Shown: positions 21,001-22,862, numbered from the stretch's first letter. The stretch is DNA of 64,000 bases from Verrucomicrobiota bacterium (GCA_023230105.1 JALNXY010000003.1:10998-74997); one strand, 5' to 3'. Numbers and translations are program-made. Notes: generated by a model not told the origin, from the sequence alone.

Positions 21001-22862
21001 GTGCTGTTGTGGGAGGTGCCTTCGGCGGTGCTGCCGCCCCCGTAGTGGCCGGAGCCGGATTAACAACCGCTGCCGCCTATGGAACGGGTGTTCTGATGGG
21101 CGCCGGTTCCAATTCGCTCGGTGTACTGACCAGTAATGCCATAGATGGGACAAACAACTCGCTGGATTCCTCTATGACCTATACACTGATCCCGTCTATA
21201 CCGGGTGACAACGGCGGCGTAACACAGGCAACGGCCCAGATCTTCTATACGGGCGTTACCAGTGGAGGTACTACTGTTTCTAATCCTCCAAGGCCGAATC
21301 AGATCACGCAGAACATTGATAATATTATTGATGGAACCGGAAGCGATGCCTGGGAGAACGCTTCTACTCTGGGCGAGCTATACGGTTTTGGAAGAAAGGT
21401 CGCTAATTCGGTGGACCCGAATGAAAAGGATGGTCCGGGTGGAGTCGGTACACAGGGCTTCATACAGCCTCTGATTACCTTCCCTTACACAGTGCATTTC
21501 GAAAATATGACCAATGCAACGGCCCCGGCTCAAGTGGTGACCATCAAGGACCAGCTTGACCGGAACCTGGATGCATCCACGTTTGCCTTCACTGAGTTTG
21601 GCTTTGGCGATCTTCGTCTGGCACTGACTCCTGAGGATAACCCTCGGGACTTCTATCGAGCTGTCCCGTACACCTACAATGACGTGGAGTTCATTGTAGA
21701 GATAATCGGAAGCATTTCTGAAGAGGGTCTTGTTCAGGTCGGCTTCTACAGCATTGATGAGAGCGGACTTCCACTCCCGGTTGAGATTGGTTTCTTGCCG
21801 CCTGAAGATGGCACCGGCTTGGGCCAGGGCTTCTTCTCCTATACGGTTGATCCTCTCAAGGGTCTGCCCACGGGAACTGAGATTCGAAACGTGGCGGCTA
21901 TTACCTTCGATTATCAGAGCACTATCACGACCAATCAGAAGGATCCCCATGATCCTTCTCAGGGAACCGATCCAACTCGTGAGTGTCTCTTGACAGTTGA
22001 TGTGACCAAGCCGACAAGTACGATAGAACCCTTGGCAGCCGTCATGAGCCAGACAGAGATCAATCTCTCATGGGTGGGAAGCGATGTTGGTTCCGGTATT
22101 GCCAGCTATGATCTCTACGTGGCAACCAATAACCTCTCTCGTGGGTTCTGGATGAACACCACCAATACAACGGCAACCTTCACGGGCAAGCTGGGGCAAA
22201 ATTATGCCTTCTACCTGGTGGCGATTGATCAGGTGGGCAATCGGCAAGATTCACCTGAGACAACACCGGCAAGTACAAGGCTGATTGCCAGTGAGCCGTA
22301 TCTGACTCTCACGGTGGAGTACCCTGAAAAGGTCTATGATAATGTACCCTTCACCTACACGCTGACGGTATCCAACTCGGGCACAGCCAGCGCTAAAGAT
22401 TTGGTGCTTGAGGAAACCTTTGCCCCGGGCACTCTGTTCGTCAGTGCAGACAATCCGCATGGAGAAGTGACTCATACGGAAAGAAGTGCTCGCTTCACCA
22501 TAGGCGAAGTGGAGCCAGGGAAATCTCTAAGTGTTAGCATTACGCTGCAGACAACTCAGACGGGTCAGACTTACTCCTCTGTAAATATCGAGAGTAGTGC
22601 AGGTTTAATCAAACTACCCAACTTCATCTACTACCAGGTAGAGTCTACTCTTGAGCTTGGGTTTAGAGGTATCGAATTGGATGGGGATACCGTGCTGATT
22701 CAAATCGAAGGCACTCTGAAAGGTGAAACTTATCAGATTGAACACAGCCATGATGCGCTCCAGTGGAGCCTACATTCTACTCATGTGGCTGAAGGAGAAA
22801 TGTTGACTATCAGTGATACCATCACCGATCAGAACCGCTTCTATCGAGTGTCCAAACAATAG
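12009..22862 (+). CDS. giant secreted multidomain protein (3617 aa): PPC-like x9, FN3, Ig, MBG, LVIVD propeller, YD/Rhs shell plus Rhs core, glycine zipper, beta-sandwich/DUF11-like modules, short conserved C-terminal module
   Basis: Single uninterrupted ORF with a GGGAG ribosome-binding site 4 nt upstream of the ATG. Signal peptide KKKLFAWLFALLFLGSISAKVNA. YD repeats (YTYDGMGR, YTYDNLGRL, YTYDAAGKP). Rhs core YMRARYYSANLGRFFSEDPLG...NLYNYAMNNPLMQIDPSGE. Confidence 0.9.
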   Translation: MNPSITENVNNKKKLFAWLFALLFLGSISAKVNALNTLPLETANTEPVVEAERALSAENPVDIYEMRLLAGHLYHFESIGADDPRAFLYDTQDLRGAPVVFDDDSGENLNFKFSYIPEIGGTYYLKVEMFNGYTNLVYSLQHFVAANDPWEPADNELQSATILLPGEDLQTHGVHFLHPADVRDLFCVTMKAGTRYTVESDSQGHVQAALYQFNQEGVLELLTLSQSQYGEDNTQLENFKLVYQPVQDGNYYLEVTPLYRDGSAVYTLSYIAQSVNELGNDTPETALELLPTTQRQAINPRILNDTYPRDYFRVYMKAGATYTFESLVKSQLMARIYALGDWQTPLASDSNFTLHFRPPVDGYYILLVERAFPKLVEDADYTLLYLYEPEDVLGYNESAETATPLNNFGQEPLEVGPYTLGSSNPKDVFAIYLPIGFSNFEVSANGDISALLYDSSDLQTALGNPSHILNSYTLGLNYRVHREGTYYLVVKKMNPDATPTYSISHWSTTTNEWRDPQDINEAVTLLDITTETQYFGPRKLGGANTQDVYKFYLEAGVRYWFDCDKTSYYLDSYLYDNPNIVSGHVASSSYCDIAYIPSQSGVYYLKVTNSNSTYTLKYSRQGWDPWDPIDNTAEGATLLVPTTEEQKHGPHTLNASDTQDVYKFYLEAGVRYWFDCDKTSYYLNSYLYDNPNIASGEVAVSWYCDFTYIPNQSGVYYLKVTNSNSTYTLKYSRQGWDPWDPIDNTAEGATLLVPTTEEQQHGSHTLNASDTQDVFKFYLEAGIQYWFDCDKTSYYLDSYLYDNPNIVSGHVANSSYCDIAYIPSQSGVYYLKVTNSNSTYTLKYSRQGWDPWDPIDNTAEGATLLVPTTEEQQHGSHTLNASDTQDVFKFYLEAGVRYWFGCTKNSYYLYSHLYDNPSLSGDHVAFAWYGDFTYTPSQSGVYYLKVSNGDTYTLKYSRQGWDPWDPLDNTAEGATLLIPTTEEQQHGSHTLNASDTQDVFKFYLETGVRYWFGCTKNSYYLYSHLYDNPSLSGEHVAFAWYGDFTYTPSQSGVYYLKVSNGDTYTLRWNGGLGDRSPSPLGIQATLEEQSAITVSWEALPDLYYQVYRSIHEKGTKELVSNWIQSNLYADDSASFETRYYYWVRSAIDPEGGNAGNFSLFAEGFRPATFAPHFLQEPEAQVSYEGQRVVFRAEVIEYPAYTYSWQWFKNGVEIEGATESRLVLEGVTLIDAGNYSVSASNEMGTTLSAQAPLTLVAVPATIYVNALDQHYFLDLPPPVLTWIARDSQGNDVTERIIGKPLLQIPKEAYNTPGNYQIGIEAGTLSGANFILAGACWVTEKPLFTLSAQNAVRVLSVENPAFAYSAVDRSGRDVSAELEGEPSILCDANLLSPAGEYPIHIWTGTLSSEKVDYKFEAGVLSVIDTEDAPVILEQPADSFPIVGLPFSLNVVAEGAFRYQWFKDGEPITGAIAATLQFNAAYKEQSGVYTVAAIGYGQTISREARVLVTDAPEGELGIPSGSLYDFPVFGMCLNGDYAYLACGTNGLRIVNVADPANVFEVGVYIHEFEPEEGEDGEPIEPPPPIEFYDVDVVGFIACTATGSTGLMVLDVSNPAEPTLLAWDAGETTYQVRLSNAIETETQADIYAYSIVDSTSSLRVRRIRVDDNTGVTLTYIRSVGTGTRANDIYLREGRLYLSRPDGTLLVYDISTTPDNPKQINNVWLSREMLAVYATDHYLFAACGNDGVKIYLFRNNGSLKLVSQALTPGFAELLSGYGNNLYVGDSYGGLQVISLLNPAAPRLVGNYPNLVGIQDIKVDNGVVFTTGENGFKPCDKTIQTDTILVRALDEGKAFGVDNPEWRYLITDGVGNDLSDYIVGDPLISSTATVDSPPGQYPILISAGSLYSPDYQLTFQNATLTVFDMDAISYNLIVPESVGRHALATLYVEYENTGTLPITSPVLVVYGSEKALMTLDASIVTAGFWTSSKPQGFNDTIEILASGQTPGVLMPGEKGRVPVYYAGLLQPWSWEPKVDFYITVMASKDTYPMNYDALYQTLNFGTEDPEAISVLWNNFKQMVGPTRGDYVSMLSRNAQALYAMGVTENSVHRLLEYEFLKDAGFSVVSSLASSVDIQVQAPATSLRFNRVFYHGLLPSYRLNLEAPGCSALGRGWDHNWNYRLVQIKKNEPIIVRTPGGAERVFQPDSRYSNRYFSSPGDYGVLTARWDGEALQDCTLVEANGNTFKFDSSGLLIQMLAPGGKAGVTLTYTEGCLVKLTHSAGQTLSLSRGGGKYNAITSIADQDGRSVSYTYTADGEQIESFTDENGLVTSYSYSRGNKANYYMLKSVLHRDATQSNYTYDGMGRIVSFTQADGALPLTFSYENNGLIHQTDALGVNMSFRFNVDGMITEVGNTDGTTLNNEYDSQKNLIRYSDRQGNIFKFTHKNGHVTRADLPNSLWTQYTWDGGLLKSFTNPKGAVTRFDYDQGMLSGIRYADGTVQRNEFDAQGNVKKVTSRRGASVEFVSDEDGRVLTKLYENGERVEYTYSADGRMATAASFDAEGKTKETIQLGFNEKKLLTSIEHANGRKITYTYNERGYRQTMSADERTVSYTYDNLGRLAQVLEGETVLVSYTYDAAGKPTGTQMGNGDQIINTYNSEGNVSSVISYNAAGTMTSQIQYTWDKGLMQTQTLNEGQWSYEYDVMGQLVRAEFYSYTPEIQSYTLEYSYDGMGNRTQSRVIQGETAHLTDYAADNMNRYTSINGAALSYDQDGNMTGRDQWVYEYDDENRLLSASNSSTHYQYEYSILGYRSAVTLNGVRTEYLVDPVGLGSVISEYVGGSLTPNVQYTQGLQLVNKISGDQSWWYHYDGIGSTLNVTDNDGLLVNHYLYEPFGAVAWALETIPNPFRFVGANGVMDDGNGIHYMRARYYSANLGRFFSEDPLGMSSGDPNLYNYAMNNPLMQIDPSGEVVPLVILAWGAVGAVVGGTTYVITTGITGETRTFGKFAGAVVGGAFGGAAAPVVAGAGLTTAAAYGTGVLMGAGSNSLGVLTSNAIDGTNNSLDSSMTYTLIPSIPGDNGGVTQATAQIFYTGVTSGGTTVSNPPRPNQITQNIDNIIDGTGSDAWENASTLGELYGFGRKVANSVDPNEKDGPGGVGTQGFIQPLITFPYTVHFENMTNATAPAQVVTIKDQLDRNLDASTFAFTEFGFGDLRLALTPEDNPRDFYRAVPYTYNDVEFIVEIIGSISEEGLVQVGFYSIDESGLPLPVEIGFLPPEDGTGLGQGFFSYTVDPLKGLPTGTEIRNVAAITFDYQSTITTNQKDPHDPSQGTDPTRECLLTVDVTKPTSTIEPLAAVMSQTEINLSWVGSDVGSGIASYDLYVATNNLSRGFWMNTTNTTATFTGKLGQNYAFYLVAIDQVGNRQDSPETTPASTRLIASEPYLTLTVEYPEKVYDNVPFTYTLTVSNSGTASAKDLVLEETFAPGTLFVSADNPHGEVTHTERSARFTIGEVEPGKSLSVSITLQTTQTGQTYSSVNIESSAGLIKLPNFIYYQVESTLELGFRGIELDGDTVLIQIEGTLKGETYQIEHSHDALQWSLHSTHVAEGEMLTISDTITDQNRFYRVSKQ
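13545..15212 (+). repeat. five near-identical in-frame tandem repeats (336-339 bp) inside the giant gene
   Basis: GGTTGGGACCCGTGGGA recurs at 13872, 14211, 14550 and 14886. Each unit encodes GWDPWDP(I/L)DNTAEGATLL...YYLKV...TYTLKYSRQ. Confidence 0.95.
16560..17490 (+). other. LVIVD-type beta-propeller region of the giant protein
   Basis: Recurrent motif: YAYLACGTNGLRIVNVADPANVFEVG, ACTATGSTGLMVLDVSNPAEPTLL, LFAACGNDGVKIYLF, LYVGDSYGGLQVISLLNPAAPRLVG. Confidence 0.6.
18417..20885 (+). other. YD-repeat (Rhs) shell and Rhs repeat-associated core of the giant protein
   Basis: Starts RFNRVFYH...LGRGWDHNW, continues with dozens of YD repeats, and ends in the core motif ...RYYSANLGRFFSEDP...NNPLMQIDPSGE (D codon at 20871). 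Confidence 0.85.
20886..21135 (+). other. Gly/Ala-rich glycine-zipper-like hydrophobic segment immediately after the Rhs core
   Basis: VVPLVILAWGAVGAVVGGTTYVITTG...GKFAGAVVGGAFGGAAAPVVAGAGLTTAAAYGTGVLMGAGSNSLGVL. Confidence 0.6.

Follow-up and report, generated by a model that had tools for sequence, protein, structure and literature searches.

The giant secreted protein encoded in the window, the whole 64,000-nucleotide stretch of DNA that was analysed, comes from an uncultured Verrucomicrobia bacterium and has an ordinary Rhs cage, but its small swappable cargo segment is internal, and a conserved adhesin-like stalk of 484 residues comes after it. This layout of cage, internal cargo and stalk is common among environmental bacteria, and a literature search found no paper describing it. 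The balance of probability lies slightly in favour of a cage of the Rhs/teneurin type whose exchangeable cargo is internal, the chain then running on outside the shell as a stalk that isopeptide bonds would stabilise and that terminates in a module for sorting or anchoring. The features that bear on this reading are as follows.

12009..22862, + strand: giant ORF of 3617 aa, a single ORF by translation and domain search
18378..20882, + strand: plug-like DUF6531 and YD/Rhs shell, aa 2124-2958, 835 aa (Pfam RHS_repeat 2.4e-33; PDB sequence matches)
20799..20882, + strand: autoprotease motif D2931-PLG...D2955-PSG, closing the Rhs-associated core (TIGR03696 1e-20; both Asp present)
20883..21407, + strand: internal hypervariable cassette, aa 2959-3133, 175 aa, 17.2 kDa, unrelated between family members
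20883-21143, + strand: hydrophobic Gly/Ala-zipper half of the cassette
21144-21407, + strand: Thr/Gly/Asn-rich half of the cassette
21414..21935, + strand: DUF7619-type CnaA-like beta-sandwich, aa 3136-3309 (Pfam PF24595 6e-18; AlphaFold2 pLDDT >90)
Within the DUF7619-type domain: putative isopeptide triad K3140 / D3181 / N3294 (family co-variation)
21936..22286, + strand: conserved DP-rich loop and FN3 domain, aa 3310-3426, forming with the DUF7619-type domain a conserved module of ~295 aa
22299..22628, + strand: DUF11/CLIPPER-type domain, aa 3431-3540 (Pfam DUF11 6.6e-11, over cut-off)
22629..22859, + strand: C-terminal all-beta '...W...RFYRV' module, aa 3541-3617, 77 aa (AlphaFold2 beta strands, pLDDT 55-87)
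22892..22927, + strand: intrinsic terminator, a 14-bp stem then T5 (hairpin -26.9 kcal/mol, z -6.4)
22997..23779, + strand: next gene, a secreted GDSL/SGNH esterase with a signal peptide, not immunity-like

From N- to C-terminus the 3617-aa protein comprises a Sec signal peptide, which is the predicted export route, PPC-like repeats, Ig/MBG modules, an LVIVD-type propeller (a Pfam search found no NHL match), the YD shell, the variable segment and the beta-sandwich tail. The protein has no PAAR or prePAAR domain, and neither TssC nor PAAR was found in the 92%-complete genome; classical short Rhs-CT cassettes are present on another contig (C8). The shell has PDB sequence matches to Rhs protein 8h8a (2e-30), Tse5, Tse15, RhsA (7q97) and a bacterial teneurin-like protein (9ifo, 5e-21, over the final 319 aa of the shell), the Rhs shells as a group matching at 2e-30 to 1e-18, whereas the plug-like DUF6531 match falls under its cut-off (20.5 vs 24.1 bits). 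Shell length is near-constant across the family, at 821-870 aa. The Rhs-associated core terminates at aa 2958 in DPLG-x20-DPSG, and the two autoprotease Asp residues are kept in 133/139 and 134/139 family members (96%); the predicted cut site is after the DPSG motif, near G2958/E2959. Beyond it lie 659 aa (70.1 kDa), for which the preliminary description gave 658 residues.

That description had placed beta-modules where an Rhs toxin should be. The modules are real, and all those named were found by Pfam and AlphaFold2, and the start coordinate 21136 does fall, as described, in the linker after the hydrophobic stretch; the toxin slot is instead filled by the segment at aa 2959-3133, which had been treated as zipper and linker and is likely the cargo. 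In a pairwise comparison of 121 relatives (7260 pairs), the shell end was similar in all pairs (median 44% identity), as was the DUF7619 plus FN3 module (51%), and the segment between shell and module in only 11 (0.2%). The cassette is bounded by DPxG on one side and, on the other, by a point ~5-12 aa ahead of DPN. Two related loci, L001 and L002, illustrate the exchange: 98.3% DNA identity over 6.8 kb gives way, 1-2 residues past DPxG, to unrelated stretches of 364 and 250 bp, after which 95.5% identity resumes over 2.1 kb. As in Rhs polymorphic toxins, the hypervariable region starts right at DPxG and is swapped by recombination, and across the family the segment behaves exactly like an Rhs-CT/HVR cassette. 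Within a cassette type, dN/dS is 0.056 (vs P0003), and 0.14 for the zipper half (vs P0012), beside 0.08-0.10 for the shell; judged by these ratios, the cassette is under purifying selection and functional within its type. For the cassette of the giant protein itself (P0001), searches gave no Pfam match and detected no toxin homologue, the only relatives being in near-identical giant genes, and its AlphaFold2 model is uninformative (pLDDT <35).

A search of 1.84 billion cluster representatives gave 1,754 relatives of the ~295-aa module at E<=1e-30. The architecture belongs to the family as a whole: an Rhs core lies 60-284 aa upstream of the module (median 135) in 137/198 module-bearing proteins, and where the upstream part exceeds 1000 aa (120 proteins) it is present in 99. 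Family cassettes measure 60-284 aa, a size that, with the near-constant shell length, agrees with the ~15 kDa of cargo given in the literature for three-turn shells (PMC8765631, PMC13018210). Separate eukaryotic copies of the family occur in crinoid genomes. The module is also found in giant proteins that have no Rhs shell (8 copies in genome G065), so its role may be that of a general stalk element with no tie to cargo.

The 484-aa tail (aa 3134-3617) consists of the DUF7619-type isopeptide domain, FN3, the DUF11/CLIPPER-type domain and the short C-terminal module. The first opens with SVDPNEK at aa 3134, its DPN being invariant (189/189 family members), and is by its Pfam match and AlphaFold2 model a CnaA-like beta-sandwich with a Lys-Asp-Asn triad: where the Lys is present, the Asp is found in 149/149 and the Asn in 148/149. 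The isopeptide bond is putative, and such bonds have been predicted for DUF7619 (PMC12617251). The FN3 match lies under the Pfam cut-off (E 4e-4), but the family profile matches the FN3 of chitinase A1 (1e-5) and FN3 domains of titin (9e-17). The next domain matches DUF11 better than CARDB, matches the CLIPPER structure 9ifr weakly (E 0.024), and probably has neither the isopeptide Lys nor the Asp; its AlphaFold2 model is poor because the alignment is shallow. The C-terminal module has no family match in Pfam or NCBIfam; the same type of ending occurs on ~50 ORFs of this genome, making it a candidate sorting or anchoring domain. Other members of the family likewise have sorting- or anchor-like far C-termini, FYRV-type or dockerin-like by eye, with a TM helix in the crinoid copies, and as these must be accessible, the tail would be outside the shell. 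AlphaFold2 predicts aa 3120-3430 as all beta with pLDDT 92.8. The preliminary description had proposed HMM and structure searches and expected no toxin fold; those run here with HMMs, AlphaFold2 and Foldseek found none in the tail, Foldseek against the PDB returning only tandem Ig/FN3/pilin-type matches (among them pilin EbpB), and Pfam, NCBIfam and PDB sequence searches found no toxin family in the post-core region.

Downstream, the terminator and the signal-peptide SGNH esterase are where they had been described, and the order of giant gene then esterase is kept in a relative (L014). Also upheld is the absence of an immunity gene, since no immunity-like gene was seen downstream here or at four related loci (L001-L004). 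L001 and L002 carry different cassettes yet have downstream genes that are 99% identical, and at L003 and L004 the next genes are on the opposite strand.

These observations leave room for a teneurin-like scaffold or adhesin in which the shell is structural and effectively empty, aa 2959-3133 is a fast-evolving linker and the tail is an ordinary fibrillar-adhesin stalk, a reading that we consider unlikely. It would account for the adhesin-type domains on either side of the shell, for DUF7619 and DUF11, which fibrillar adhesins typically have in their stalks (PMC12617251), for the module without a shell, and for the missing immunity gene at all five loci looked at. Most family cassettes lack a Pfam match and some are merely Pro/Gly-rich and linker-like, several relatives having such a segment at the cassette position; others are enzyme-like, however, with one phospholipase A2-like segment (Pfam 4e-8), a His...Cys family with weak PPPDE matches, and HExxH motifs spotted by eye. 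The swap is moreover a discrete block that starts at the DPxG boundary in genes otherwise 95-98% identical. A purely structural, empty shell is disfavoured because the Asp pair, which is lost in teneurins (PMC8765631, PMC13018210), is kept in 96% of the family and because the segment is under purifying selection; of the alternatives first offered, a structural or teneurin-like shell or a displayed payload, it is the tail displayed outside the shell that is retained.

It is still less probable that the shell protease simply frees a 70-kDa C-terminal protein whose hydrophobic N-terminus is a membrane anchor or insertion element, the shell being a temporary chaperone and no toxin being delivered. 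The conserved protease pair fits such a release, as do the first 87 residues past the predicted cut, which are Gly/Ala-rich and hydrophobic (top 19-residue Kyte-Doolittle window 1.85; 18 small-xxx-small motifs). A comparable hydrophobic stretch occurs in 37/137 family cassettes (27%), but 73% are not hydrophobic and some cassettes look enzyme-like, and the far C-termini are already sorting- or anchor-like.

The post-core region exceeds what a three-turn shell can take in, as had been argued at the outset, because known cargo is far below 70 kDa: ~15 kDa for RhsA (PMC8765631) and for three-turn shells (PMC8765631, PMC13018210), and 35 kDa for the largest natural TcC cargo (PMC6868009), while the ~44,000 cubic-angstrom cavity of BiTLP (PMC13018210) fits, by our estimate at crystal-like packing, <= ~36 kDa. 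It is thus scarcely credible that all 659 aa form one encapsulated payload of unusual size, or that the tail is an assembly or fusion artefact, for which only the position after DPxG speaks, whereas the modules are confidently predicted stable beta-sandwiches and the layout recurs in >130 independent proteins and in the syntenic relative.

The bacterial teneurin-like proteins (TLPs) likewise combine Sec export with adhesion domains at the N-terminus, a beta-propeller, a plug (a candidate one here) and a YD shell in three layers; next come the DPxG...DPxG Asp pair and at once a polymorphic segment, ~15 kDa there and 17 kDa here. An example is BiTLP of Bacillus inaquosorum (PDB 9IFO/9PT5; Raoelijaona et al., Nat Commun 2026, PMC13018210), whose cargo, short and hydrophobic like the segment here, is a 92-aa peptide that permeabilises membranes once sent to the periplasm, and whose shell has no C-terminal exit (PMC13018210). 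In TLPs, however, the cargo is the C-terminus and lies wholly in an exit-less shell, whereas here 484 further conserved beta-sandwich residues (53 kDa folded) follow; an immunity gene sits downstream of almost every TLP, and none was seen at the locus here or in its four relatives; the TLP propeller is NHL rather than LVIVD-type; and the six phyla from which TLPs are reported leave out Verrucomicrobiota, Planctomycetota and Lentisphaerota.

The T6SS Rhs effectors (RhsA of Pseudomonas protegens, 7Q97; Tse5; Tse15; the Rhs-family protein 8H8A) share the YD shell, the C-terminal aspartyl autoprotease motif and a hypervariable region straight after DPxG, with a cargo of ~15 kDa. The present protein differs in its Sec export, in having no PAAR/prePAAR, in an internal hypervariable region and in having no immunity gene after it; unlike in Rhs polymorphic toxins, the variable domain is not the C-terminal end, as 484 conserved residues follow. 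We know of no solved bacterial Rhs shell with an exit for the C-terminus, which counts against the cargo reading together with the missing immunity gene, the lack of toxin homology in the giant protein's cassette, the linker-like cassettes of relatives and the module's occurrence without a shell.

Such an exit is seen in metazoan teneurins, whose chain, as proposed here, runs on past the plug to folded domains that have to lie beyond the shell, and which share the order propeller, plug, shell, the plug here being a candidate. They have no Asp pair and are uncleaved, whereas the pair is present here; their outside domains are ABD and Tox-GHH, neither of which was matched in a domain search of the giant protein, in place of DUF7619/FN3/DUF11; and they are anchored by an N-terminal TM helix. 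The TcB-TcC cocoons of ABC (Tc) toxins likewise have a hypervariable region, a beta-propeller adjoining the shell and no immunity protein. Their hypervariable region is encapsulated and cleaved, both of which we infer for the protein here, and they differ in having four turns, a C-terminal cargo of 30-35 kDa and a need for TcA in delivery. The tail resembles the isopeptide stalks of fibrillar adhesins (CLIPPER/DUF11 and DUF7619; PMC12617251, PDB 9IFR) in its CnaA-like first domain, co-varying Lys/Asp/Asn triad and DUF11, both families being stalk modules of the extracellular kind, but its domains are single-copy, not long tandem arrays, and are placed after an Rhs cargo slot, a setting absent from PMC12617251, which does not mention 'RHS'.

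If the cage does hold an internal cargo, a Sec-exported surface protein would carry a small exchangeable cargo within its YD/Rhs shell, right after DPxG; that the cargo lies inside the shell, and its role there, we infer. The Asp pair would cut after aa 2958, leaving the cargo in the cavity with its N-terminus free, and the cargo's C-terminus would leave the shell joined to the stable stalk, which might be sorted or anchored via the C-terminal module common to ~50 other secreted proteins of the genome. The cargo would stay 'on a leash' until freed by contact or force and, by analogy with the 92-aa Bacillus teneurin-like cargo, the Gly-zipper cargo may act on a membrane. A stronger form, possible though doubtful, has the cargo's C-terminus pass through the shell wall and join an isopeptide-locked stalk anchored in the producer's envelope, so that the 326-kDa adhesin-plus-shell fragment would be held only by the trapped cargo, and contact or pulling would extract or release it. 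Such an arrangement, if true, would represent a new delivery logic for Rhs proteins, and would provide a bacterial precedent for a C-terminal shell exit earlier known only in metazoan teneurins.

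The giant protein of the window, P0001, has the shell, core, Asp pair and variable region after DPxG by which Rhs proteins are defined, but in two defining respects it departs from them: the variable region does not form the C-terminus, and no immunity gene lies downstream. The gene and its surroundings are arranged as follows.

12009-22862, plus strand: giant ORF, a single ORF of 10.85 kb encoding 3617 aa
22629-22859: C-terminal FYRV-type module at the end of the giant ORF, all-beta in the AlphaFold2 model
Downstream of the giant ORF: hairpin with a 14-bp stem (-26.9 kcal/mol, z -6.4), followed by T5
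22997-23779: signal-peptide GDSL/SGNH esterase, the next gene after the hairpin
Beyond the esterase: divergent LysR gene, then lysC

As judged from sequence, the N-terminus of P0001, MNPSITENVNNKKKLFAWLFALLFLGSISAKVNA, is a Sec signal peptide. Pfam and NCBIfam place Ig, MBG and LVIVD propeller modules upstream of the core, and Pfam finds a DUF6531 plug match below threshold and RHS repeats at E 2.4e-33. DPLG-x20-DPSG closes the Rhs-associated core domain (TIGR03696, E 1e-20), whose last residue is aa 2958. Beyond it lies a post-core region of 659 aa (70.1 kDa), for which the preliminary description had proposed beta modules in the position of an Rhs toxin. The slot directly after DPxG is instead occupied by aa 2959-3133, a variable cassette of 175 aa and 17.2 kDa; Gly and Ala make up 40% of its first 87 residues, which contain 18 small-xxx-small motifs and have a top 19-residue hydropathy of 1.85. 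The beta modules form the tail that follows.

P0001 belongs to a family of giant proteins with a conserved DUF7619+FN3 module, in which shell length is nearly constant (821-870 aa) and the two catalytic Asp residues are present in 133/139 and 134/139 members. Among 121 members, similarity is detectable in all 7260 pairs both over the final 300 shell residues (median identity 44%) and in the module (51%); the intervening segment is similar in 11 of these pairs (0.2%). The clearest swap is that between P0021 and P0030 (loci L001 and L002), whose genes share 98.3% DNA identity over 6826 bp before the cassette and 95.5% over 2138 bp after it, with unrelated stretches of 364 and 250 bp in between. 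In the proteins the break begins 1-2 residues past DPxG and ends 5-12 residues before the DPN of the module, which is invariant in 189/189 family members, and the same boundaries are found in other family pairs. As the alignments read, this break pattern is the classical signature of Rhs-CT/HVR replacement, but with conserved arms on both sides. At these two loci the giant gene and the downstream PEP-CTERM gene are 95-98% identical between two metagenome contigs and seem to have been transferred or recombined together; upstream of the giant gene the DNA is unalignable, yet a protein-kinase gene lies there in both. Cassette length was also compared with shell length (rho -0.2), a correlation that is uninformative because shell length is near-constant.

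The four modules that the preliminary description discerned in the tail are all real: DUF7619 (E 6e-18) and DUF11 (E 7e-11) in Pfam, an FN3 domain under the Pfam cut-off (E 4e-4), with the family profile matching chitinase A1 FN3 at 1e-5 and titin FN3 domains at 9e-17, and a last stretch of 77 aa that is modelled as all-beta. AlphaFold2, with an alignment of 46 sequences, predicts two beta-sandwiches for aa 3120-3430 (pLDDT 92.8, pTM 0.85), and Foldseek comparison of this model with the PDB returned scFvs, the pilin EbpB, RbmA, transglutaminase C-terminal barrels and UafA, that is, tandem Ig/FN3-type proteins only and no enzyme or toxin. When the whole tail was modelled, shallow alignments left both the cassette and the DUF11 region poor, and Foldseek was limited to the other model; the DUF11 region has a weak match to the solved CLIPPER domain 9IFR. 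A toxin fold in the tail, whose absence had been predicted, is thus rejected on Pfam, NCBIfam, PDB sequence and profile searches, AlphaFold2 and Foldseek, all of which gave Ig/FN3/pilin-like matches only.

A published prediction makes DUF7619 a CnaA-like intramolecular isopeptide domain and a sister of DUF11, now named CLIPPER, which occurs in the extracellular stalks of fibrillar adhesins (PMC12617251). The putative isopeptide triad of P0001 would be K3140/D3181/N3294. Where the Lys is present, the Asp accompanies it in 149/149 members and the Asn in 148/149, and where it is replaced by Leu, Met or Ile the Asp is missing in 23/41, these being counts of phylogenetically non-independent sequences. 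The DUF11 domain of P0001, as aligned, seemingly has neither Lys nor Asp. The final module terminates in ...RFYRVSKQ, and ~50 other ORFs of the 2.86-Mb genome end likewise, with a ~70-aa all-beta C-terminal module of the pattern ...S.DL..W......FYRV plus 2-6 aa. It corresponds to no family in Pfam or NCBIfam, and may be a sorting or anchoring domain specific to the lineage. Many of its ~50 bearers are giant, and a module of this type also ends the S8 protease-LRR gene near window 40830-41017. Elsewhere in the family FYRV-type or dockerin-like ends are seen by eye, and the copies in crinoids end in a TM helix. All of these ends appear to be of types that must be accessible, and the tail would therefore behave like the stalk-plus-anchor of a surface protein.

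The reading that we hold to be somewhat better than an even bet is a cage of Rhs or teneurin-like type whose exchangeable cargo is internal and whose tail forms a stalk on the outside, for which we infer encapsulation, cleavage and function. The giant protein would be exported in a Sec-dependent manner, the shell would fold around the cassette, and the Asp pair would cut after aa 2958; the cassette would then be retained in the cavity while the chain exits the shell as a stable stalk, terminated by a sorting or anchor module. Known cargo is ~15 kDa for three-turn Rhs shells and ~30 kDa for four-turn Tc cocoons (PMC8765631), with 35.1 kDa for the largest natural TcC cargo (PMC6868009). The cavity of the Bacillus inaquosorum teneurin-like protein, BiTLP, is ~44,000 cubic angstroms (PMC13018210), which at 1.21 cubic angstroms per Da holds an estimated ~36 kDa at most. 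By this estimate a 17-kDa cassette fits such a cavity and the 70-kDa post-core region does not, in agreement with the earlier argument that this region is too big for enclosure.

The preliminary description had taken the shell to be structural or teneurin-like, or else to display a new kind of payload. The likeness of the tail to an outside stalk speaks for such a view, and a teneurin-like scaffold that is empty has perhaps one chance in five; it is opposed by the conservation of the protease pair, by the discreteness of the cassette swaps and by purifying selection on the cassette. The dN/dS of the cassette is 0.056 against P0003 (97% identical), and that of its zipper half is 0.14 against P0012 (75% identical), compared with 0.08-0.10 for the shell. 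Given such low values within a cassette type, the segment is a functional polypeptide and not a drifting linker.

What the cargo does is less clearly marked. Pfam searches of 108 family cassettes yielded one phospholipase-A2-like match (4e-8), one VWA7_N and one Transgly_assoc, and none for the rest. Seven cassettes have common invariant His...Cys-Gln residues and weak Pfam matches to PPPDE peptidases, the profile of this His...Cys family finding nothing significant in the PDB, and HExxH motifs are visible by eye in several cassettes. Such features are no more than suggestive of a toxin. The closest experimental analogue for the P0001 cargo is that of BiTLP, a 92-aa hydrophobic C-terminal domain held in the shell, which permeabilises E. 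coli when targeted to the periplasm (PMC13018210). A hydrophobic stretch like that of P0001 occurs in 37/137 cassettes. Self-cleaving release of a 70-kDa protein with this hydrophobic end as its anchor could be envisaged for P0001; with 73% of family cassettes non-hydrophobic, we regard it as improbable.

Relatives of the P0001 cassette are confined to near-identical genes: classical-length Rhs proteins (555-1767 aa) carry no homologue of it at their C-termini, its sole match as a stand-alone small protein is a 134-aa fragment of a similar gene, and its AlphaFold2 model carries no information. The idea that orphan cassettes of the giant gene lie elsewhere in the genome did not hold up, module and cassette each occurring once. 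Contig C8 (minus strand, first ~6 kb of the reverse complement) carries a classical orphan-type Rhs array of core fragments and short CTs, one of ~190 aa with a HEMTH motif and one of ~130 aa, with interleaved small ORFs, and Rhs fragments also occur at the end of contig C15. These belong to another Rhs type, the classical one, whose relationship to the giant gene's shell is distant; the short core+CT cassettes of C8 provide a useful contrast within the same genome. A T6SS link of the giant protein was rejected, the genome (92% complete) having neither TssC nor PAAR.

The expectation that no immunity gene would be found downstream is borne out by the hairpin, T5 run and signal-peptide esterase of the window. 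Neither here nor at L014, the locus of P0003, where an esterase also comes next, is there an immunity-like gene. The same is true of L001 and L002, where the downstream PEP-CTERM protein is 99% identical despite the differing cassettes, and of the further family loci L003 and L004, where the next genes are on the opposite strand. L014, from a fermentation metagenome, holds the closest complete relative and is syntenic (tsaB-like gene, alr, giant gene, GDSL esterase); P0003 is 226 aa shorter than P0001, a difference that falls upstream of the YD shell, since shell and tail align over their full length. In the family member P0007 a GDSL/SGNH hydrolase domain is fused after the module. A specific link between this domain and the window's separate esterase was rejected, their similarity being family-level only (E 0.04), and the two are probably a coincidence.

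Used as a query against 5.8 billion proteins, the tail recovered ~50 giant proteins of 2100-5800 aa with RHS repeats, YD shell and DUF7619, from Verrucomicrobiota, Planctomycetota, Lentisphaeria and other groups. When 1.84 billion cluster representatives were searched exhaustively, 11,224 relatives emerged, of which 1,754 reach E<=1e-30; what is conserved is DUF7619+FN3 (tail residues ~174-468), at 45-52% identity. An Rhs core lies 60-284 aa upstream (median 135) in 137/198 module-bearing proteins in hand, and in 99/120 of those with enough upstream sequence. Given both the recurrence of this layout and the size of the region, it is scarcely credible that the shell encloses the entire tail or that the arrangement is an artefact.

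The module is carried by 11/151 sampled genomes of the phylum. One of these, G065, has eight copies (L005-L012), all in giant ORFs and none with an Rhs core within ~500 aa upstream, which rules out that the module always stands behind an Rhs core; it is therefore not exclusive to Rhs proteins. The pre-module sequences of the G065 paralogues differ, some being helical and Cys-rich and others unrelated, and a Pro/Gly-rich linker precedes DPN in all. There are hints here that the module may also follow variable heads in non-Rhs proteins. Two proteins of ~4070 aa from crinoids (feather stars), P0055 of Antedon mediterranea, on a 22-Mb contig, and P0056 of Anneissia japonica (LOC117108507), have RHS repeats, an intact DPxG...DPxG, a ~175-aa variable segment, the DUF7619 module and a C-terminal TM helix, and may represent a separate bacterium-to-animal transfer of a YD-shell gene.

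Among known systems the bacterial teneurin-like proteins (TLPs; Nat Commun 2026) are closest to the P0001 family, followed by T6SS Rhs effectors, TcB-TcC cocoons and metazoan teneurins. In the structures and surveys of Rhs, Tc and teneurin-like proteins consulted, the C-terminus is the variable cargo and is sealed in the shell, whereas in the P0001 family the cargo is internal. All C-terminal domains described in the 2026 TLP paper are short and enclosed (PMC13018210), and a phrase search of Zhang et al. 2012 gave no passage on domains after the toxin. Metazoan teneurins are the only known case of C-terminal domains outside the shell and of chain exit, and are uncleaved. In our literature search mention of DUF7619 was confined to a single paper, and no description was found of an internal cargo slot with a conserved DUF7619-FN3 tail.

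The family is thus large and widespread, with an internal cargo slot, a conserved extracellular tail after it and no immunity gene in five loci examined. The arrangement poses a topological question, namely the route of the chain out of a closed shell, and suggests a different mode of cargo holding and release. As a natural fusion of an Rhs shell to stalk domains predicted to be isopeptide-stabilised, it could interest engineers of cocoon delivery devices. The family supplies dozens of uncharacterised cargo types, and may bridge bacterial toxin cages and teneurin receptors as an intermediate form.
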